Notes: generated from the sequence alone by a model not told the origin. A stretch of 40,000 nt of DNA from Pseudomonas fluorescens (GCF_001902145.1 NZ_MRST01000026.1:524095-564094), one strand, 5' to 3'; counted from the first letter of the stretch, positions 4,876 through 34,500 are shown. Numbers and translations are program-made.

Positions 4876-6183
4876 TTAAGAGTCAGGCGAAAGGTCCAGC
4901 CGATGGGTCTTGGCAATGGCATCGATCATGACCGACGAGAGCCCCACTTTTGCAGCGGTCACAGGCCATTGCGTCACCGCCTCATGCACCTCTCGGATGA
5001 TCTGCTTGGCCTTCAGCCCTTTGATCTGGCTGCCCACACTGAGCAGGTCAGCCATCACAAAATTGTCGCGCTTACCGTTGATACTCATCTGATGGCTGTC
5101 GACCCAGAAGTTTCCAGGCATGTAGGACCAGGTAACGTCATAGGCAGGCGACAAATACCAGGTACCGTCAGTGTCCAGCAAAAAGCTGATGTTCTTGGTG
5201 TGGTCGTCCTGGTTTCGAGCGATAACGTTGAACACCATGCGCCTGAAAAACTGCTCCGCCTCCCGGCGCCCCAGTTTCAGCGCCCTGAACACGTTCAGGG
5301 CCTCGGCGTAGGAGTACTCGCCAGGTTTGTTGTAGTCAGCATGATCCAGTGCGCACAAGGTCGCGGTATGAATTTTGTCACCTTCATCGGTCCGGTCGAA
5401 TCGCTTGGTCATGAAGTGGGCACGCCCACCCTCTTCGAGCAAACGGCACTCAGTCATTACCACACCTGCTTGCCTGGCCATCAGGTAATAGGCGTACTCG
5501 ATGCGACCAAACCCCTGGCTATCGGCAAGCACATCGGTGTTTTTTGCGACATCAAATTTGAGCAACCAGTAGCTATAACCTTTGGGCGCTGGCACCTGCC
5601 CTGACCTGATGTGCCCTTCGCTATTGATGGCAATGATCGCCTTTGCGCGAGCGCCACCGGCACTTGTGCCCACCTGAATCAAGCGCTGCAACGCGGCGTC
5701 GTCGACGCTAGGGTCATTGGATGTCAGCCGGTCCTCCAGGCTTTGGCGCCCCGAGAGCACCTCCCCAGCCAACTGGGCCAACGCCGCGATCTCGATGGTT
5801 TCGGCCTCATTAGCCTCAGTATTCATGGCCGGCCGATATTCCAGCGCGCCCATACCGCGATTACCTTGGTAGAGGAGTCGATCCACCGGAGTGAACGAAA
5901 GCTTGTCGCGCCCCTGCTGCGCCAACCATGCGTTGATCAATGCATTACCGAAGTCATCCGGAAGCGAGTCGGCAAAAATCGCCGGAAGCGCCTTATAGGT
6001 TTCCCGGTTCAGGTTGGTGAATGCGTAGGTGTACCCGGCGCGGGCGGGCATGTGAATGGGCGAGATCTCAAGCCCCGTGGAGACAAACTCGGGTGAAAAT
6101 TCGAACTCGCCCACCTGGGTTGTCTCGTCCCAATTGAGCGCTCCGACGTATAAACCCCATAAATAGATCTGTGCAATCACCAA
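4876..6183 (-). CDS. hipA: HipA-family serine/threonine kinase toxin (type II TA)
   Basis: 435 aa. The N-terminal coupling-domain pattern is IYLWG..VGAL.WD...F.F...F...GL.ISPIHMP. Central and C-terminal blocks are LDRLLY.GNRGMGALEY, GTSAGGARAKA, WLLKFD and RNQDDHTKNISFL (the catalytic-loop DxHxKN). The start is TTG 6183 or GTG 6180, overlapping the hipB stop (GTGA). Confidence 0.9.
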   Translation of the reverse strand: MVIAQIYLWGLYVGALNWDETTQVGEFEFSPEFVSTGLEISPIHMPARAGYTYAFTNLNRETYKALPAIFADSLPDDFGNALINAWLAQQGRDKLSFTPVDRLLYQGNRGMGALEYRPAMNTEANEAETIEIAALAQLAGEVLSGRQSLEDRLTSNDPSVDDAALQRLIQVGTSAGGARAKAIIAINSEGHIRSGQVPAPKGYSYWLLKFDVAKNTDVLADSQGFGRIEYAYYLMARQAGVVMTECRLLEEGGRAHFMTKRFDRTDEGDKIHTATLCALDHADYNKPGEYSYAEALNVFRALKLGRREAEQFFRRMVFNVIARNQDDHTKNISFLLDTDGTWYLSPAYDVTWSYMPGNFWVDSHQMSINGKRDNFVMADLLSVGSQIKGLKAKQIIREVHEAVTQWPVTAAKVGLSSVMIDAIAKTHRLDLSPDS

Positions 6184-7827: not shown

Positions 7828-9252
<1,425 letters not shown>

Positions 9253-24544: not shown

Positions 24545-24648
24545 CTTGTAGGAGCGAGCTTGCTCGCGAAGAACGTCCAGGCACCGCGTTATTCCAGGGT
24601 GCACGCATTATCGTTAACGTTTTTCGCGAGCAAGCTCGCTCCTACAGG
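24545..24648. repeat. REP-like extragenic palindrome
   Basis: cttgtaggagcgagcttgctcgcgaa ... ttcgcgagcaagctcgctcctacagg, starting 10 nt after the reductase stop. Confidence 0.85.
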
Positions 24649-24984: not shown

Positions 24985-26211
24985 ATGAAGCGCGTCTTGT
25001 GTGCAGGATTGATGTTTGTCAGTTTCAGCTGTTTCGCCGCAGAACCCATTCCTTCCGAGCCGGTACGGGCCAACGCCGCCAACAAACCTTTCCCGCATAT
25101 TTCCTGGCGCAGCGATAGCGGCGACAGCAGCCTGGACATCGGCGGGGCGCTGCGCACCAACTACCGCGACGAGCATTGGGACACCACCGAGAACAACGGC
25201 CGGTTTCTGTTCGATACGTTCCGCCTGGATGTCCAGGCTACCTACAAGAGCCTCTACAGCGACATCGGCTACTGGTTCCAGGACGACGGCAAGCGCGCCA
25301 TTGATCGCGGCTTCGTGGGCTATCGGCTCAACGCCAATTCCAATCTGCAACTGGGGGCGCCGTTCAAACCCTTCGGCCTGGAGCCTTATCCGCAATTTGG
25401 CTGGAGCTACCACTTGCCGTTCTTCATGGGCTACGCGGTGAGTGCCGGCACCGGCCTCAAATACAGCTACAAGGACCAGGACTGGGACGTACAGCTCGGA
25501 TTTTTCCCGCGCATGCTGCCCAGCGATTTGCGTTACTCGCCGGAAGTGGGGCGTTACGCCGACTTGAATGACAACGCGATTGCCTTCACCCAGTCGCGCC
25601 AGGACAACGAGAAGCGCAACCAATTCAACGCCCGCGTGGCGCGCACCTTCAACAACGAGGGCTGGAAGACCGAAGTGGGAGCCTCGCTCGCCACCGCTCA
25701 GCTCTACAACGCCACCACCAAAGACAATGGCGACTACTGGGCCGCCGGCGTACACGCCATCATCAGCAAGGGCCTGTGGACCGTCACCACCCAAGCCATC
25801 CGCTACGAATACGACCCCGAAAACCCGAGCGGCGTGAGCAACGACTCGGTGCTGATGGGCGGCAATGGCCTGACGCCTGCGTACCTGATCGCCTCCAAGG
25901 CCAGCCTGGCCTCGCTCAACGTCGGCTACGACATCCACACGCCCCGGCTGGGGCAACTGAAGAAGATCAAGCTGTACAGCGATTACAGCCGAATGATGAA
26001 AGACAAAAGCGCCTGGGACGACTCACAGATGTTCACCGTAGGCGCGCAGTTCCTGGCGATGCCGGTGATGGCCTGGGTCGATCTCACGTGGGCGCGCAAT
26101 GCCAACCCCTATGGCGGTGCGGAGAATGGCAGCGGTTTTACCAGCACCAATTCGGTGGGTAGCAACGACTGGTATTACCGCACCAACGTCAACATCGGTT
26201 ACTACTTCTGA
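24985..26211 (+). CDS. Outer-membrane beta-barrel protein (porin-like), unknown specificity
   Basis: Signal peptide MKRVLCAGLMFVSFSCFAAEP. The sequence is rich in alternating aromatic and Gly/Asn/Asp residues. The C-terminus ...NVNIGYYF ends in Phe, as in the OMP beta-signal. Confidence 0.7.
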   Translation: MKRVLCAGLMFVSFSCFAAEPIPSEPVRANAANKPFPHISWRSDSGDSSLDIGGALRTNYRDEHWDTTENNGRFLFDTFRLDVQATYKSLYSDIGYWFQDDGKRAIDRGFVGYRLNANSNLQLGAPFKPFGLEPYPQFGWSYHLPFFMGYAVSAGTGLKYSYKDQDWDVQLGFFPRMLPSDLRYSPEVGRYADLNDNAIAFTQSRQDNEKRNQFNARVARTFNNEGWKTEVGASLATAQLYNATTKDNGDYWAAGVHAIISKGLWTVTTQAIRYEYDPENPSGVSNDSVLMGGNGLTPAYLIASKASLASLNVGYDIHTPRLGQLKKIKLYSDYSRMMKDKSAWDDSQMFTVGAQFLAMPVMAWVDLTWARNANPYGGAENGSGFTSTNSVGSNDWYYRTNVNIGYYF

Positions 26212-26218
26212 CACAGAC

Positions 26219-26316
26219 CCCTTGTGGGAGCGGGCTTGCTCGCGAAGGCGGTGGGTCAGTCAACGTATGTAGTGGCTGGTATGGCGCATTCGCGAGCAAG
26301 CCCGCTCCCACAGGGG
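26219..26316. repeat. REP-like extragenic palindrome
   Basis: cccttgtgggagcgggcttgctcgcgaa ... ttcgcgagcaagcccgctcccacagggg, immediately after the porin stop. Confidence 0.85.
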
Positions 26317-26374
26317 TTGTGCGCTGGCAGTTCGCTTTTTGCTGATATCGGGCCTCGGGTGAGGCCCGTTTGGG

Positions 26375-26764
26375 TTACCTGAACTTTGCCAGAATGTATG
26401 CAGCCGCCAACCAAATCAGAGCCGTACAGATCAGCGTCGTAGTGATGATGAGAAGACGTTTGAGATAGCGTGGGAAGTTTTCAAAGTCCACTGGATCCAA
26501 GTTGCCGTGCCGGATATGCACCTTTGGCATCAGGATCATTCCGGCTATTTGTGACATTTCCAAAAGAGACCAAATCAAACCGCGCTTCCCAAGGCTGTCT
26601 CCCCAAAGATAGATATAACGGCTGTTTTTCAAAGCCTCTTTTATGGCATCCATGTGACGGTGAGTAAGATATAGGTTTAGCGCGAGACCCGTTAATCCTA
26701 GAAGGAATGGGCTGGCCAAAAGCCAAATTTCTAACCAGGCGTTCCAAGACTCATCCGTTGTCAT
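26375..26764 (-). CDS. Small polytopic membrane protein; candidate immunity protein for the upstream PAAR toxin
   Basis: ATG at 26764 overlaps the TGA of the upstream gene (ATGA, 26761-26764). The 129-aa product MTTDESWNAWLEIWLLASPFLLGLTGLALNLYL...GLIWSLLEMSQIAGMILMP...LLIITTTLICTALIWLAAAYILAKFR has three hydrophobic helices. The longer ORF to 27007 overlaps the toxin gene and looks spurious (Arg/Trp-rich). Confidence 0.6.
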   Translation of the reverse strand: MTTDESWNAWLEIWLLASPFLLGLTGLALNLYLTHRHMDAIKEALKNSRYIYLWGDSLGKRGLIWSLLEMSQIAGMILMPKVHIRHGNLDPVDFENFPRYLKRLLIITTTLICTALIWLAAAYILAKFR

Positions 26765-28173
26765 GGCAAAGTTTTCTCGTACAGTTTTTCTCCTATCTGT
26801 TCTCCACGCGTACCGCCGATAGTCGTGCCCGCCCATGCGCCTGCCCCAACCAAAGTCGCGACACACACAACGCCCCCTATACCTGTCGTAACACCAAGCG
26901 CCAGACAGATCGCGCCACCAGCAACACCGCCTGCCGATCCACCAAATGCGCCGCCGACAACCGAACCGCCGAACTTTCCACCCTCTGTAAACTTGATCTT
27001 TTCGCAAGCCGCTCCGGAATCGTTATTGCAAACCTGCTGTATCGCCAATGAGGCGGATACGCCGCCAAGGGCAATTCCGATGTAACCACCTGCCTTCATG
27101 TATCTGGCCGCGCGGCTGGTCGCTTCCACATGCGCCGAATAACCCGGAATCTGCCCAGGCCCACCCGCTTTGTCCCAGTGATGCACCAGACTGCGACTGG
27201 AAATACCCAGGGCTGTTTTCAACTTGGGGTGGTCGCCCAGGGTGGTTTGGCCACGTAATCGCGTGGAGTTGAGCAGGTGGGCATCCAGCTGGTTCATAAG
27301 ACGCTGGCGATCGGTGAAGAACTGCGACGACTTGAGGTGGCCGTGTTGGCGATAATTTTCTTGATGTAAACGTTCGATAGCTTGGAGGGTGTCGCGTAGG
27401 TTGTTCATGTGCGTTTCCATCACCACAGCGCTAACGCCAAGCCAGGTTGAGGTATGGCCGATAAAGCCAGCGATCTCGGCACCGTGTCGATACAGAAAGT
27501 CGGCCTCGTCCGGCGTCAGCGAGTCCAGAGATGCGCTGACGTGTTGTGCAGCCTGCATCAGCTGCGCTTCCTGATAGGTGCAGGAGGTGTTGTTCGGATC
27601 GCTGAGCACGATCATCGAGCCGGCTTTGACGTGGCTCGTATTGGGATTCAATGCCTGAAGCTTGCGCATTACAGCCGGGTCGAGCGTCGGAAAAAGTGTG
27701 GCCTCCAGCGCCTCGCGGGTCATGCTCTGCGGCACGATATAGAAGCCAGGCTCCTGGCCGTGCGCACCGTTGTATGTTGTTGGCACTGTATGAGCGGATG
27801 GCGCGAAACCAGATTGACGCGGTGCTGCAGGGCTGCCATTTACAGCTGATGCATTCGATGAAGCAACTCGCTGCCCCATAGGAGATGCGGCGCTCTGGTT
27901 TGAGTAGGTGGCCGAGTACACCGAGGGAATCAGGCGAGCTCGACAGGGGCAACTGCTGAAGCTATCCAGCGTGCCAGCGACACGTTTTCCATGACTTTGA
28001 ATATGGGAAATGCCGCCTAGAATCTGGTAAGTCCCTGTGTGTTTCCCGCACGTCACTCGGTCGCCTTCGCGCGCGTGGAGAACACCGTGCATATTTACCC
28101 TGGGGTCACCGTCGAGAATCTTACCGCCGCATGTGGTTTTGTCACCTAGACCAACAAAGTACCCTTCACTCAT
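26761..28173 (-). CDS. PAAR-domain protein with a C-terminal glycine-zipper membrane domain (candidate T6SS pore-forming effector)
   Basis: 470 aa. The N-terminus MSEGYFVGLGDKTTCGGKILDGDPRVNMHGVLHAREGDRVTCGKHTGTYQILGGISHIQSHGKRVAGTLDSFSSCPC has the repeated GD...CGG / x-I-x-GG / G...A PAAR-type pattern. The C-terminus is GGKFGGSVVGGAFGGSAGGVAGGAICLALGVTTGIGGVVCVATLVGAGAWAGTTIGG (GxxxG zippers). Confidence 0.8.
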   Translation of the reverse strand: MSEGYFVGLGDKTTCGGKILDGDPRVNMHGVLHAREGDRVTCGKHTGTYQILGGISHIQSHGKRVAGTLDSFSSCPCRARLIPSVYSATYSNQSAASPMGQRVASSNASAVNGSPAAPRQSGFAPSAHTVPTTYNGAHGQEPGFYIVPQSMTREALEATLFPTLDPAVMRKLQALNPNTSHVKAGSMIVLSDPNNTSCTYQEAQLMQAAQHVSASLDSLTPDEADFLYRHGAEIAGFIGHTSTWLGVSAVVMETHMNNLRDTLQAIERLHQENYRQHGHLKSSQFFTDRQRLMNQLDAHLLNSTRLRGQTTLGDHPKLKTALGISSRSLVHHWDKAGGPGQIPGYSAHVEATSRAARYMKAGGYIGIALGGVSASLAIQQVCNNDSGAACEKIKFTEGGKFGGSVVGGAFGGSAGGVAGGAICLALGVTTGIGGVVCVATLVGAGAWAGTTIGGTRGEQIGEKLYEKTLP

Positions 28174-28607
28174 TGTTTTGCCCTTTATCCATATAGTGTT
28201 TGGTCGTGCTTTCCTCCCCGCCTCGATAAGAAAACTGACGCGTGACGCATTTCAATCGAGGTAAACGAGTAAGGGAAAGTCAGCGGCAAGCCAAACTTTG
28301 GAGAGGGATTTACTTAGGGTAAAGTCGGACGATTCCGGGAGTTTCGTCGTATAAATCTGATAGGGCTGCGGCACCCGATGCCGTGCACCGGGCGCGAATT
28401 ACTTGCCACTAACATTTCCAGGCGAAGAGAGGCAGCTGTACGCGGGCTGGAAACCGGGGCAAAAGGAACCCGGCAGACCCGAAGGTCTCCCACGCTCAGC
28501 CGCCATAAAGCACAAAGGGCAGGCATAAAAAAAGCGTCTGCTGATTGTTTGACGACGCTGTAGCGTCCTTGAGCATCGGGTTTCCAGGCACGGTCGTCAA
28601 ATGGCTG

Positions 28608-28703
28608 TTGTGGCGAGGGAGCTTGCTCCCGTTGGACTGCGCAGCAGTCCCATTTTCCGGGGCCGCTTCGCGACCCAGCGCGAGCAAGCTCGCTCGCCAC
28701 AGG
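28608..28703. repeat. REP-like extragenic palindrome
   Basis: tgtggcgagggagcttgctc ... gagcaagctcgctcgccaca, with one arm mismatch and an inner hairpin ggactgcgcagcagtcc. Confidence 0.8.
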
Positions 28704-30496: not shown

Positions 30497-31480
30497 ATGC
30501 TTTCAGCTAACAACGTGATGGTGCTCTACACCGGCGGCACTATCGGCATGCAGGCCAGCGCCAATGGCCTGGCGCCCGCATCTGGTTTTGAAGCGCGCAT
30601 GCGCGAACAACTGGCAGACCAACCCGTGCCTGCCTGGCGCTTTCGCGAAATGTCACCGTTGATCGACAGCGCCAATATGACGCCCGAGTATTGGCAGCGC
30701 CTGCGTACCGCCGTGGTAGAAGCTGTGGATGAGGGCTGCGATGCGGTGCTCGTCCTGCACGGCACAGACACCCTGGCCTATAGTGCGGCGGCGATGAGCT
30801 TCCAATTGCTTGGCTTGCCTGCCCCGGTGCTGTTCACCGGTTCCATGCTGCCTGCCGGGGTCCCCGACAGCGATGCCTGGGAAAACGTCAGCGGTGCCTT
30901 GGCCGCGCTCGGCGCAGGCCTGCCGGCGGGGGTGCAACTGTACTTCCATGGTCAGCTGTTGGCGCCGACCCGTTGCGCCAAAGTGCGCAGCTTCGGCCGT
31001 CATCCGTTTGCCGCCCTGCAACGCCAGGGCGGTATGGCCCGCGCCGAATCACTGCCGGCCGCGCTGGACTGTCGCCAACCCAAGGGCATTGCCGATATCG
31101 GCGTGTTGCCGTTGGTGCCCGGCCTGCGTGCAGCGCTGGTGGACAACCTGATCGATAGCGGTGTGCAGGCGTTGATCCTGGAGTGCTACGGCAGCGGTAC
31201 CGGTCCCAGCGACAACCCCGAGTTCCTTGCCAGCCTCAAACGCGCGCAGGCCCAAGGTGTGGTCGTGGTCGCGATTACCCAATGCCATGAAGGTGGCGTG
31301 GAATTGGACGTCTACGAAGCCGGCAGTCGCCTGCGCGAGGCCGGGGTGCTGTCAGGCGCCGGCATGACCCGCGAAGCGGCGTTCGGCAAGCTCAACGCCT
31401 TGATCGGCGCAGGCCTTGCCACTGACGAAGTGCGCCGCCTGGTCGAATTGGACCTGGGTACCGAGCCGCACGCTAGATAA
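30497..31480 (+). CDS. ansA: L-asparaginase, type I (cytoplasmic)
   Basis: VLYTGGTIGM (catalytic Thr motif), HGTDT, and an overall length of 327 aa. The RBS aggag is at 30484-30488. Confidence 0.9.
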   Translation: MLSANNVMVLYTGGTIGMQASANGLAPASGFEARMREQLADQPVPAWRFREMSPLIDSANMTPEYWQRLRTAVVEAVDEGCDAVLVLHGTDTLAYSAAAMSFQLLGLPAPVLFTGSMLPAGVPDSDAWENVSGALAALGAGLPAGVQLYFHGQLLAPTRCAKVRSFGRHPFAALQRQGGMARAESLPAALDCRQPKGIADIGVLPLVPGLRAALVDNLIDSGVQALILECYGSGTGPSDNPEFLASLKRAQAQGVVVVAITQCHEGGVELDVYEAGSRLREAGVLSGAGMTREAAFGKLNALIGAGLATDEVRRLVELDLGTEPHAR

Positions 31481-31573: not shown

Positions 31574-34500
31574 ATGACCACACCAAGCGCCACCCCGCAG
31601 GCCCCCCAGCCAGAAGATTTAACCCAGAAGCTGATCACCCAGTTTTGCGTCGGCCCCTCGCTCACGGAGGTAGCCGGCCAGTTGTTGAGCGAGGCCCTGC
31701 AGCAGGCTTATCCAAACCTGCATATAAACCCGGACACCACGCTGATGGGCACGCCGGTCTGGGAGCTGGCAGACAATCAAATTGTGTCCAAGCCCCCTCT
31801 CTACAAGACGCTCAGCACCCAACTGACATCGCAAACACTGTCGGGCGTGCCGACGCTATGCCTTGAGGGAGAGCACTTTCTTACCCAGCCTCCGGTCGCG
31901 GAGCCTGCCATTCACTTGCCGGTGCGCATTGTCGAAGTCGCCAATACGATCAATGTCCTGGCTCCTGTCATGCTCCAGGCACTCAAGGAAAAATTGGTGG
32001 AGTTCTGGAACCACCGCAACGGCAACGGTCCTCGCTGGCAGGATTTTTCCAGCACTTTGCACAAAATATGGAATGTGCAACGCGTGGACGACTGGACCGA
32101 TGAAGACTGCGCACTGGCCCGCACCCTTTACCGCTCACCCGACTCTGCGAACCGCACGGCTGACGACAAGCTCAAGCTGCGGGCCTGCCTGGTCGACGTC
32201 GATCTGGTGCGCGGTGGCAAAATTACCCATTCCCATCAAGTACCCATTGCCGTGCTGCTAGGGCGCGAGCAGAACAAAAGCGTCATCCTCTGTCATTCGT
32301 TCGCCGGCTACCGGAAATTCTCCGACATGTCTCAGTTGGGCGAGTACCTGCCTACGCTGTTGTTACTATCGGATCAATACGAGCGTTTGGAGTGGCGTTT
32401 GTATGAACCTTCCGGCAACTTTTTCGAACAGCTGGCCTGCTCAATGATCGCGTTACAAATTGAGCTCTCCATTGCCACCTCCGGCGGTAAGACAGCCACA
32501 TCCAGCGAGCAGCACGTAGACGTACTGACAGTGACCCAAGGCCAGGTAACCCCCAAGGGACCGGAGCTCCAGTGGTACCGCGAATCCCTGCCGGCCTGGT
32601 TGGCCACGGCCTCCAGTTCAGACCAGGTGTTTTACTCGCGTTATTTGAAAGACCTGGCCGCATTGAACAGCCTGAACGCAGGCAAAACCTACCAGGACGG
32701 CATTCCCGACATTCGGCAGTACGCCCTGGACAGGCTCAAGGCGCAGATCATCAAGGACCATCCCGAGGCCGCACACCTGGCCCTGGACACCCTGACCCTG
32801 AAGGTTGAAAGCCAGGTGGTCTGGGGCTTGTTTCCGGTGCCGGGCCAGATCCTGACCAGCAGCTTCAGCCTTGCCGACCTGGCCCTGCAAAATCTGATCG
32901 CGATACCTCTAGGGAACAAAAGCCTGACGATGGGGACACGCCACACATTGCCAGCGTGGCTGACTGTGCAATACGTGGAAGGGCTGATTACTCAAGTTGA
33001 TATAGGCACCACTTATCCGGCGCTGATCCGCAGCAAGTTGATCGATGACCCAGCCGAGGTATTGCGGCGTAAAACCCTATACACCGAACACCTGCGCCTC
33101 CAGCTGCCGCTGTTGGCCCTGCAGTTCAAGATCCGTCAACAGAACGGGCTGGACGAGCGCGGCTACCGTTATGTGGCGGCCGTCATGCAGCCTGAAATCA
33201 GCGACCGGTACGTCGACGGGCAGGCCATTGTCATGCGCTACCTGGGGTTCATTCCCAAGCGCCGGCAGGGCAATAGCCAGGATGTGGTGACCAATATGTA
33301 CGTCATCGGCCCACAAAACGCCGACACCGGTCCCTGCCTGCTGTATCGCCCACTGTTCCAGCCGGTGTTGATTCAATACCCGTCACAGGCGAACCTGCTG
33401 TACGCCATCGCACAATCTCACCCCCTTCGAGACTCGGTGCTCGCCTGGTTACCGGACTCGGTGCGCCAGGACTACACCAACTACGTCTTCCCCAGTGAGC
33501 TGCCTTCACCCTGGGCCGTCGCCGATTTTCTGGTAGAACCGGACAAACTCTGGACGTTCAGCGGCCCAATGAGCCTTGGCGAGCAAGTGCTCAATGGTGA
33601 TCTGTTCAGCACCTTGTTCGAGGCCAACGCCAAGGCCCTAGTGGTATTGGCTGACCGCCAGTCGGTGTCCAATGCCGAAAGTCGCTGGGCCACTCTGAAA
33701 CAGGCCGGCTGGCTGATCTTCAATGCGGGCCTGCCTTTTATGGGGCGTATCGCCGGCACGGGGGCCTGGATCTGGCAGATCGTCGATCAAGTACAGGCCT
33801 TCGTCGATGCACATGAGCACGGTGACCAGCCAGCGCAGTGGTCGGCGCTGACCGATGTATTGCTCAACCTGGGCATGGCCATCACGCTGCATGTCGCCAG
33901 CCGTCATCCCGGTACGAAAGTCATCACCTCAGAACCTGAGACAGCAAAACTCCCCGTTGCCCCGCCCATTACGGTCAAACAACTGCCTGAGCGCACGACC
34001 GATCACCTCCCGGCCGGTCATGAACTGGCGCTGCACACCAGCGGCGCGATTACGCGCACGGCCAGCAGCCTGGCAACATTGCTGGACAGCTTCAAAACTG
34101 AAAAGCCTGCTCAGTTGCCGGATGCCATCAGCGAACAGAGCGCCTACCAGCACCTTTATTTGCTCAACCAACACTATTACGCGCCGGTGGGCACGCGCTG
34201 GTTTGAAGTCACGCTGGAGGGTGACGAAACCATCGTGATCGTTGATCCCAAGCAGCCCCAGCGTACTGGCCCGCCATTGATTCATAACGCCAAGGGTGAA
34301 TGGTTCATCGACACACGCCTGCGCCTGCGCGGTGGCGGCCGCAAACAGCAGTTGAAAAGCGCCAAAGACAAGGCGCAGGCAGAGAGCGCCACGTTGCGCA
34401 CGAAACTGGAAACCTTCGAAAAAAACAAAACTGCGGCACAACGTGAACTGCAGCAGACCCACCAGGCCATCGCCGATGCCCCTGGCACTTCGGCCCAGGC

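Follow-up and report, generated by a model that had tools for sequence, protein, structure and literature searches.

A PAAR-fused glycine-zipper protein of Pseudomonas fluorescens and its three-helix partner form a likely orphan type VI secretion effector-immunity pair

[quoted passage not shown] Pore-forming colicins (E1, N, S4, A) are soluble helical toxins in which a hydrophobic hairpin inserts into the inner membrane from the periplasm, and the immunity proteins of the colicin E1 type are small inner-membrane proteins with three transmembrane (TM) helices that recognise the toxin within the membrane. To our knowledge, few T6SS pore-forming effectors have been studied, and each so far has given a new fold and a new mechanism of ion conduction. 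For each of the known T6SS pore formers Ssp4, Ssp6, Tse4, Tse5, Tme and Tke5, the immunity protein is an integral-membrane protein. Here we analyzed a 40,000-nucleotide stretch of Pseudomonas fluorescens (GCF_001902145.1, NZ_MRST01000026.1:524095-564094; hereafter the window), which encodes on its minus strand a 470-aa PAAR protein ending in a glycine zipper and, directly downstream, a 129-aa protein with three hydrophobic helices. An earlier note, made by a model from the sequence alone, had read these two genes as an orphan T6SS toxin and its immunity protein. We consider it likely that they form a chromosomal orphan T6SS PAAR effector-immunity cassette whose toxin is a membrane pore former.

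The described system that most resembles this pair is Tke6/Tki6 of P. putida KT2440, listed as a putative colicin-like pore-forming T6SS effector pair (Bernal et al., 2017; PMC5363822). Tke6 (PP_0646) has 466 aa, an N-terminal PAAR domain, a Phyre model on colicin N covering residues 242-460 and two TM segments; Tki6 (PP_0647) is an inner-membrane protein of 129 aa with three TM segments, and the pair is orphan, i.e., not beside vgrG (PMC5363822). The likeness to the window pair extends to genus, protein sizes (466 and 129 aa vs 470 and 129 aa), layout, the three-TM partner, and orphan position. Members of the window family also reach the P. putida group (locus L037, at 65% identity, and family member P0493), and on the grounds of architecture, genus, and this spread the family very probably includes Tke6/Tki6; by architecture, it seems already to have been flagged in the literature. 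The colicin likeness of Tke6, however, was not reproduced for the C-terminal module of the window toxin by Pfam, Foldseek, or a significant profile match. The proposal that the central domain and the immunity protein define an uncharacterised family stands in part: they have no Pfam, NCBIfam, or PDB match, but the family had not gone unnoticed, given the 2017 prediction for Tke6/Tki6 (PMC5363822).

Two further families of T6SS membrane toxins bear comparison. Ssp4 of Serratia marcescens (332 aa, 13 helices and one small sheet, no PDB match) acts from the periplasm, forms cation-selective pores, carries membrane helices at its C-terminus, and depends on DsbA and on the essential residues Cys47, Cys123, and Cys165 (Reglinski et al., 2025; PMC12669606). 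Ssp4-like proteins form large Pseudomonas and marine groups, often far from T6SS genes, and the immunity protein Sip4 is an integral-membrane protein with four TM helices (PMC12669606). The Tme/Tmi family, represented by Tme1 and Tme2 of Vibrio parahaemolyticus, has a C-terminal domain that disrupts membranes and exerts its toxicity from the periplasmic side (Fridman et al., 2020; PMC7046647). Tme domains are defined by a DxxK-TM-D motif and are fused to PAAR, VgrG, MIX, or unknown N-termini; their immunity proteins are DUF1240-like with three to six TM helices, and about 70% of Tme genes lie beside T6SS genes (PMC7046647).

The toxin gene of the window occupies positions 26761-28173 (minus strand), with its stop codon at 26761-26763, and the immunity-like gene positions 26375-26764 (minus strand). 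The two overlap in an ATGA at 26761-26764 (minus strand) that joins the TGA of the toxin to the ATG of the partner, an arrangement of translational coupling. Translation re-derived both open reading frames (ORFs) and their overlap as given in the earlier note, and matched the protein sequences quoted there. The toxin is 100% identical to WP_073526264.1, a "PAAR domain-containing protein" of P. fluorescens. Its PAAR domain (residues 1-95; 27889-28173, minus strand), which the earlier note had recognised from sequence pattern, is matched by the Pfam profile PAAR_motif (PF05488) at residues 9-71, with 38.9 bits against a cut-off of 27 (E=1e-9). A full-length AlphaFold2 (AF2) model folds residues 1-90 into beta strands, with a predicted local distance difference test score (pLDDT) of 78-91 for the block. 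In alignment A2, Cys42, Cys75, and Cys77 were invariant and Cys15 was at least 90% conserved; these four residues would be suited to bind zinc. Of 54 family members in the alignment, 19 matched the PAAR profile (best E=1.8e-25), and the others are mostly stand-alone forms that lack an N-terminal domain. Whole-chain Foldseek of the toxin model against the PDB returned no PAAR structures, and sequence searches of the PDB (phmmer), run with the whole toxin and with residues 1-100, found no match.

Behind the PAAR domain lies a disordered linker rich in Ser, Ala, and Pro (residues 96-140; 27754-27888, minus strand; pLDDT 24-43), the least conserved stretch of the toxin, with a mean pairwise identity of 0.33. 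The remaining module was modelled with AF2 from a 54-sequence alignment (mean pLDDT 78.7) and runs from a beta-alpha-alpha-beta unit through a bundle of long helices to a terminal two-helix hairpin. The first unit (residues 141-200; 27574-27753, minus strand; pLDDT 89-95) contains N176 and G185, which are invariant across the whole family. Its modelled topology is LysM-like, and a homologue appears in one UniRef record under the name "LysM domain-containing", but none of the 54 family members matched Pfam LysM and a profile of residues 141-204 found no LysM in the PDB; a LysM identity is thus not supported by these searches, and we use the term for the topology only. The helical core that follows (residues 201-395; 26989-27573, minus strand) is strongly conserved (column conservation 0.84-0.98) and holds the near-invariant block LKTALGISSRSLVHHW...IPGY (about residues 318-345) and a loop bearing Cys382 and Cys390. 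Among 27 diverse members, the invariant residues were N176, G185, F285, C382, C423, and C437, and the near-invariant ones G246, G278, R289, S325, H331, G363, and C390; Cys198 was conserved in the Pseudomonas set only.

The toxin ends in a hydrophobic helical hairpin containing a glycine zipper (residues 396-470; 26764-26988, minus strand), assigned from hydropathy, motif counts, and the AF2 model. Its last 90 residues include 24 Gly, and residues 405-454 form a single hydrophobic stretch of 50 residues. Within residues 399-457 there are nine small-xxx-small-xxx-small motifs that overlap one another, bearing out the extreme zipper described previously. AF2 places the zipper in two long helices of about 37 residues each (388-425 and 432-468). 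Only one of the 54 family members reached Pfam Gly-zipper_Omp (E=0.005). Although Cys423 and Cys437 are invariant, conservation falls to 0.52-0.86 in this segment, which is probably the variable end that specifies immunity.

The 129-aa protein has hydrophobic segments at residues 9-34, 62-80, and 99-129, in agreement with the three helices previously noted, together with an acidic N-terminus and basic loops containing six and five Lys+Arg. It had no Pfam, NCBIfam, or PDB sequence match. We found 305 homologues, all unnamed; those labelled with an organism are all from Pseudomonas, and sometimes several lie on one contig. Helices one and three are the variable parts among these homologues.

Homology searches indicate that, on sequence grounds, the toxin belongs to a large, fast-evolving family without a Pfam or NCBIfam model. 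More than 1000 homologues had E<1e-3, and among the top 120 all of those labelled with an organism came from Pseudomonas. When residues 140-470 were searched against 1.8 billion cluster representatives (50%-identity clusters), 399 clusters matched, 82 of them below 1e-30. The module of about 330 aa occurs in four settings: behind PAAR, for a total of about 470 aa; behind a complete VgrG, as in P0311 (1037 aa; Phage_GPD, Phage_base_V, and Gp5_C), with P0332 taken as VgrG-fused from a sub-threshold DUF2345 match; behind other, unannotated N-termini; and alone, as proteins of 325-348 aa in Pseudescherichia and Enterobacter (Enterobacterales), Photorhabdus, Saccharophagus, and the P. putida group. 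The module is thus covalently joined to a spike component both in the window (PAAR) and in P0311 (full VgrG). A domain that is found joined to more than one kind of spike protein, here two, bears the usual hallmark of a T6SS effector, and we read the module as such.

PAAR-like tips also cap the spikes of phages and tailocins. The window protein might accordingly belong to a tailocin or phage-like contractile particle instead of a T6SS; one database record does name a homologue "Pyocin large subunit", and there is a C4 RNA of phage type upstream of the toxin gene. We regard such an origin as highly improbable, given that no phage or tailocin gene was found in the window or the related loci, that the same module is fused to a full VgrG, and that the C4 RNA belongs to a separate DUF3077/DUF6124 module.

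We next consider the pairing of the two genes across 48 loci, 43 of them from species-representative genomes and five others (loci are numbered with the prefix L). An immunity homologue lay directly downstream of the toxin in 48/48 loci, and of 35 full pairs in other genomes at least 30 kept the 4-nt ATGA overlap. In several genomes the cassette is present two or three times, at separate sites. The contexts vary: the neighbours are, e.g., a xylose operon (P. lactis) or a sulfate transporter beside a GGDEF-EAL gene (P. frederiksbergensis). About 14 loci have downstream arrays of extra immunity genes, most of them preceded by an orphan C-terminal fragment of the toxin (L002:3882-4948 and 7863-8478, L023:7810-8657, L025:7810-8645, L031:7967-9196, L033:7897-9340, L034:1444-2273, L009:7808-8322); some loci carry extra immunity genes alone. 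The fragments begin at toxin residues 312-317, just before the most conserved block LKTALGISSRSLVHHW...IPGY, or at residues 418-434.

In Rhs and CdiA loci, recombination within a conserved segment replaces an old toxin tip with a new one. By analogy, the orphan arrays of the present family follow the same displacement pattern: they share with Rhs and CdiA a conserved N-terminal body, a variable C-terminal toxin, and displaced fragments each with an immunity gene. The family differs in having no Rhs/YD repeats and no PxxxxDPxGL or VENN motif to demarcate the tip, the block before the orphan fragments being LKTALGISSRSLVHHW instead. Among toxins of comparable delivery, the Tse5-CT region of P. 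aeruginosa is a spike-delivered pore former.

The window site itself provides a closer view of how these alleles evolve. Five genomes share the cassette site beside the Na/Ala symporter gene, namely P. libanensis (L001), P. lactis (L005), P. paralactis (L011), a metagenome-assembled genome (L004), and P. trivialis (L043); the convergent porin gene is likewise present in L001, L005, and L011. The flanking symporter and porin are 96-99.6% identical in protein sequence; for L001, L005, and L011, the toxin is 74-88% and the immunity protein 71-75% identical. Synonymous divergence (dS) against the same three loci is 0.15-0.21 for the flanks, 0.46-1.6 for the toxin, and 0.56-1.05 for the immunity gene, and the ratio of nonsynonymous to synonymous divergence (dN/dS) is 0.01-0.05 for the flanks, 0.05-0.06 for the helical core, 0.15-0.30 for the hairpin, and 0.19-0.24 for the immunity gene. 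Within the family, the variable parts of the toxin are the hairpin and the linker. The raised dS and protein divergence relative to the flanks show that the toxin and immunity alleles are older than the surrounding chromosome and are swapped at a fixed site, the locus being a recombination hot spot. We dropped positive selection in situ as the cause of divergence, since dS itself is raised 2.5-8-fold and dN/dS stays below 0.3. Exchange of old alleles at a fixed site also accounts for the compositional pocket: as the earlier note had sensed from spot counts, the GC content is lower in the cassette (46-49% in the immunity gene and 56-59% in the toxin) than in its flanks (60-67%). As a separate observation, the asparaginase gene at 30497-31480 (plus strand) shows a dS of 0.74-0.85 against the syntenic genomes, compared with 0.15-0.21 for the adjacent symporter; the recombination mosaic therefore reaches beyond the toxin cassette.

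This distribution of constraint bears on where the toxic activity resides. Conservation within the toxin is highest in the helical core (residues 201-395; 0.84-0.98, dN/dS about 0.05), and immunity divergence correlates with divergence of the core (rho 0.60) at least as well as with that of the hairpin (rho 0.55). Both patterns would fit a T6SS toxin in which the hairpin serves only for entry or anchoring and the core is toxic to a non-membrane target. There are precedents for such an entry device in the N-terminal TM domains of prePAAR effectors and in Agrobacterium Tde1, whose glycine zipper reportedly helps a DNase cross the inner membrane (PMC10240207). Searches of Pfam, NCBIfam, Foldseek, and PDB profiles, however, found no enzyme-like family or fold for the core. 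The immunity protein is a small integral-membrane protein with short loops rather than a soluble enzyme inhibitor, and short orphan fragments consisting only of the hairpin still travel with their own immunity gene. We therefore judge a non-membrane target improbable and return to the pore-forming effector as the reading to be compared with known toxins.

Ssp4 resembles the window toxin in outline. Both proteins have a helical module of about 330 aa with one small sheet, membrane helices at the C-terminus, and an integral-membrane immunity protein; the size and helix content of Ssp4, its lack of a PDB match, and the frequent distance of its relatives from T6SS genes all resemble what is modelled for the window module. 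With Tme, the window toxin shares a C-terminal module carried on PAAR or VgrG and a downstream multi-TM immunity protein, within the range of N-terminal fusions and of three to six TM helices described for that family. The module might thus be a divergent PAAR-fused member of either family, and would then bring nothing new beyond it, an option we find unlikely. Ssp4 is a stand-alone, Hcp-dependent cargo in contrast to the PAAR fusion of the window, its cysteines (47, 123, and 165) differ from those of the window family (382, 390, 423, and 437), and Sip4 has four TM helices compared to three. The direct relationship was assessed by looking up accessions in the complete list of Ssp4 homologues (Dataset EV2; criterion hmmsearch score >100), an indirect comparison. 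Six accessions of the window family (A0A3G7U377, A0A0B1YXP2, A0A0R2ZJK7, A0A127HY06, Q21P72, A0A090VN94) were absent from that list. For P. vulneris, the Ssp4 list holds A0A090VWR9 and the window family A0A090VN94. The Pseudomonas matches in the Ssp4 list start at residues 1-12, occasionally 45-70, and none starts after a PAAR domain. As for Tme, its DxxK motif was not found in the alignment of 27 members, where the residues that precede the hairpin follow the pattern C-x-K-x-x-F-x-E-x-G; Pfam DUF1240 was matched at E<=1 by 0 of 30 homologues of the immunity protein; and, whereas about 70% of Tme genes lie beside T6SS genes, none of the 48 window-family loci has vgrG within 6 kb.

Membership in the BTH_I2691/VasX/Tke5 group was also discarded, as there was no match to NCBIfam NF041559 at E<=1 and none to VasX_N or MIX in Pfam, and the toxin has 470 aa compared to about 1000. 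The resemblance to colicins lies in a helical toxin with a hydrophobic hairpin and a three-TM immunity protein, and colicin E1 is the top PDB profile match of the module, short of significance. No colicin pore domain was matched in Pfam or appeared among the Foldseek PDB matches of the module. Colicins are imported through receptors and Tol or Ton, whereas the window toxin would be delivered on a T6SS spike, and the immunity gene of the window is co-oriented and translationally coupled, unlike those of colicins. The likeness to Tse4 and Ssp6 drawn previously goes as far as analogy.

For this candidate pore former, the following mode of action can be proposed. On firing of a T6SS encoded elsewhere in the genome, the PAAR-toxin would enter the periplasm of a neighbouring Gram-negative cell on the VgrG spike. 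The C-terminal glycine-zipper hairpin would then insert into the inner membrane, aided by the preceding amphipathic helices, and hairpins would self-associate through their small-xxx-small faces into an ion-conducting pore, collapsing the membrane potential. The Cys382/Cys390 pair may become oxidised in the periplasm; conservation of this loop suggests oxidative activation, by comparison with Ssp4 (PMC12669606). In the inner membrane of the producer, the 129-aa protein would bind the variable hairpin of incoming toxin through contacts between helices and so neutralise it. The pore, the toxic activity, the protection by the partner, and the dependence on a T6SS are all inferred. The effector-immunity assignment originally made for the pair is strongly upheld, as a polymorphic toxin system, by the consistent pairing (48/48 loci), the ATGA coupling, the occurrence of the module in PAAR-fused, VgrG-fused, and stand-alone forms, the orphan arrays, and accelerated evolution at a fixed locus. 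The cassette is well-formed and its toxin is most likely a membrane-depolarising pore former.

Several results weigh against this model. With a toxin fused to PAAR, each firing brings in a single molecule, an awkward fit for a pore made of several subunits. A Pfam scan of all sizeable ORFs in the window found no hcp, vgrG, or tss among them, as the earlier note had stated, and vgrG was absent within 6 kb of the cassette in all 48 loci; neither the window nor these loci thus identifies a candidate for the partner VgrG spike. Because immunity divergence tracks both core and hairpin, the specificity determinant is not pinned to either on present sequences. The helical region after the PAAR domain, which the earlier note could not place, matched nothing in Pfam, NCBIfam (E<=1), or PDB sequences; its predicted structure is an all-helical core and hairpin for which Foldseek against the PDB gave a best E=0.83, i.e., no solved fold. 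Foldseek of the module against the PDB and BFVD, and of the full-length model against the PDB, returned nothing below E=0.19, and the best PDB profile match of the module, colicin E1 (2I88), had a non-significant E=0.26. In the literature, we found no experiments on any family member, including Tke6, since 2017. Finally, in about 22 of the 48 loci a conserved protein of 161-182 aa is encoded immediately upstream of the toxin (e.g., at L044:7434-7919 and at L021:5456-6004, in the latter overlapping the start of the toxin gene), and this gene is not present in the window. The upstream protein had no Pfam or NCBIfam match and may be an accessory protein or chaperone.

The missing upstream gene, together with the lack of T6SS genes nearby in the window and the decay upstream of the toxin, where the C4 RNA is all that is left of a deleted DUF3077 module, raises the question of whether the cassette is intact but inert, i.e., a stranded allele that lacks its cognate VgrG or accessory protein and is kept mainly for immunity against relatives. 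We think this improbable as well. Both ORFs are full length with their coupling overlap intact, dN/dS is well below 1 throughout, and the toxin leader and its ribosome-binding site (RBS) are conserved. Moreover, the upstream gene is not found in any of the five syntenic loci, yet their toxins remain intact.

The 5' leader and promoter region of the toxin operon (28174-28424, minus strand), including the RBS ggataaagggcaaaacaATG, is near-identical upstream of the toxin in L011 and L043. No convincing sigma-70 promoter was matched in this leader. A palindromic or direct-repeat element, ATGCGTCACGCGT, followed by a T-run lies within it at 28238-28250 (minus strand), is found in L011 and L043 too, and could be an operator or attenuator. 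Further upstream, at 28425-28510 on the strand of the toxin and 250 nt from its start, is a C4 antisense RNA (Rfam RF01695) that scored 69.7 bits against a gathering threshold of 45 over the full length of the model (positions 1-87). In syntenic L011, C4 is followed by a DUF3077 gene; in the window this gene is missing and only the RNA and a hairpin remain. The window C4 RNA therefore reads as a remnant whose own DUF3077 target gene has been deleted.

A C4 covariance model built from six copies was run on the related loci. It detected C4 in 13 further loci (14 including the window), usually within about 1.3 kb of the toxin start and in either orientation, and in the further loci always directly upstream of a DUF3077 or DUF6124 gene (L011:5337-5770, L020:4556-5055, L021:4692-5188, L026:4702-5195, L037:4758-5200, L019:3015-3105, L038:4969-5457, L047:7269-7798, L044:910-1361). 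In seven loci, the loop of the second C4 hairpin is complementary over 7-9 nt to the RBS region of the DUF3077 or DUF6124 gene, with a sequence that differs from locus to locus. This covariation indicates cis-encoded translational control of the DUF3077/DUF6124 genes; the same antisense arrangement is known from c4-icd of phage P1. The window C4 loop, UUUUGCCC, is complementary to GGGCAAAA in the toxin RBS. Because the same RBS sequence also occurs in L001, L029, and L043, which have no matching C4 loop, this complementarity is probably coincidental. We likewise dropped C4 as a conserved regulator of the toxin, since its loop co-varies with the RBS of the DUF3077/DUF6124 genes and not with that of the toxin. 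As an observation in its own right, C4-DUF3077/DUF6124 modules cluster beside toxin cassettes, an association for which we found no literature.

Taken to its fullest extent, the pore-forming interpretation would combine several propositions: the module is a new helical pore-forming family unrelated to colicins, Ssp4, Tme, and VasX; its alleles recombine at LKTALGISSRSLVHHW; specificity is read within the membrane between the hairpin and helices one and three of the immunity protein; and the orphaned C4 loop UUUUGCCC pairs with the toxin RBS GGGCAAAA, damping translation. That all of these should hold together is doubtful, and we offer the combination tentatively.

Among Pseudomonas associated with plants and food, the family is very abundant and a genome holds several copies; it has neither a Pfam or NCBIfam model nor a solved structural relative. 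Characterisation of one member would annotate more than 1000 proteins now named only as "PAAR domain-containing protein", would settle the 2017 prediction for P. putida Tke6, and would show how a pore former manages when each spike carries a single molecule. Hairpins and immunity proteins that vary naturally, both at a single chromosomal site and across the orphan arrays, constitute a ready data set for mapping the recognition of a membrane toxin by its membrane immunity protein.

Around the cassette, inverted pairs of repetitive extragenic palindromic (REP) sequences, or REPINs, lie downstream at 26214-26321 and upstream at 28609-28701. The earlier note was thus correct that the cassette is bracketed by REPs, but the special meaning given to the bracket does not hold: the window has two more inverted pairs belonging to this family (2022-2106 and 24548-24645), so REPs are ordinary intergenic elements here and the bracket carries no information. 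REP bracketing as a sign of mobility was dropped because these pairs are frequent in the window and because five other species-representative genomes have the cassette at this very site. A GC-rich, terminator-like hairpin lies just past the immunity stop codon (26349-26368), with its T-run on the plus strand; it might also serve the minus-strand operon.

The remaining window ORFs recognised by Pfam are metabolic and housekeeping genes and a hipA gene; they include purE/purK, transporters, dehydrogenases, a Rieske oxygenase system, the Na/Ala symporter, and asparaginase. The hipA-family toxin kinase gene (HipA_C and Couple_hipA; 4876-6183, minus strand) adjoins purE/purK, and locus L047 also has a hipA gene near its cassette. 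The 408-aa ORF that converges on the cassette (24985-26211, plus strand) had no Pfam or NCBIfam match; with a signal-peptide-like start and the ending ...NIGYYF, it looks like an outer-membrane beta-barrel and is 98-99% conserved in sister species. A 1531-aa ORF (31574-36169, plus strand) had no significant Pfam, NCBIfam, or PDB sequence match, and identity to its homologues is only 64% in L011 and 53% in L043, compared to 96-99% for nearby genes.

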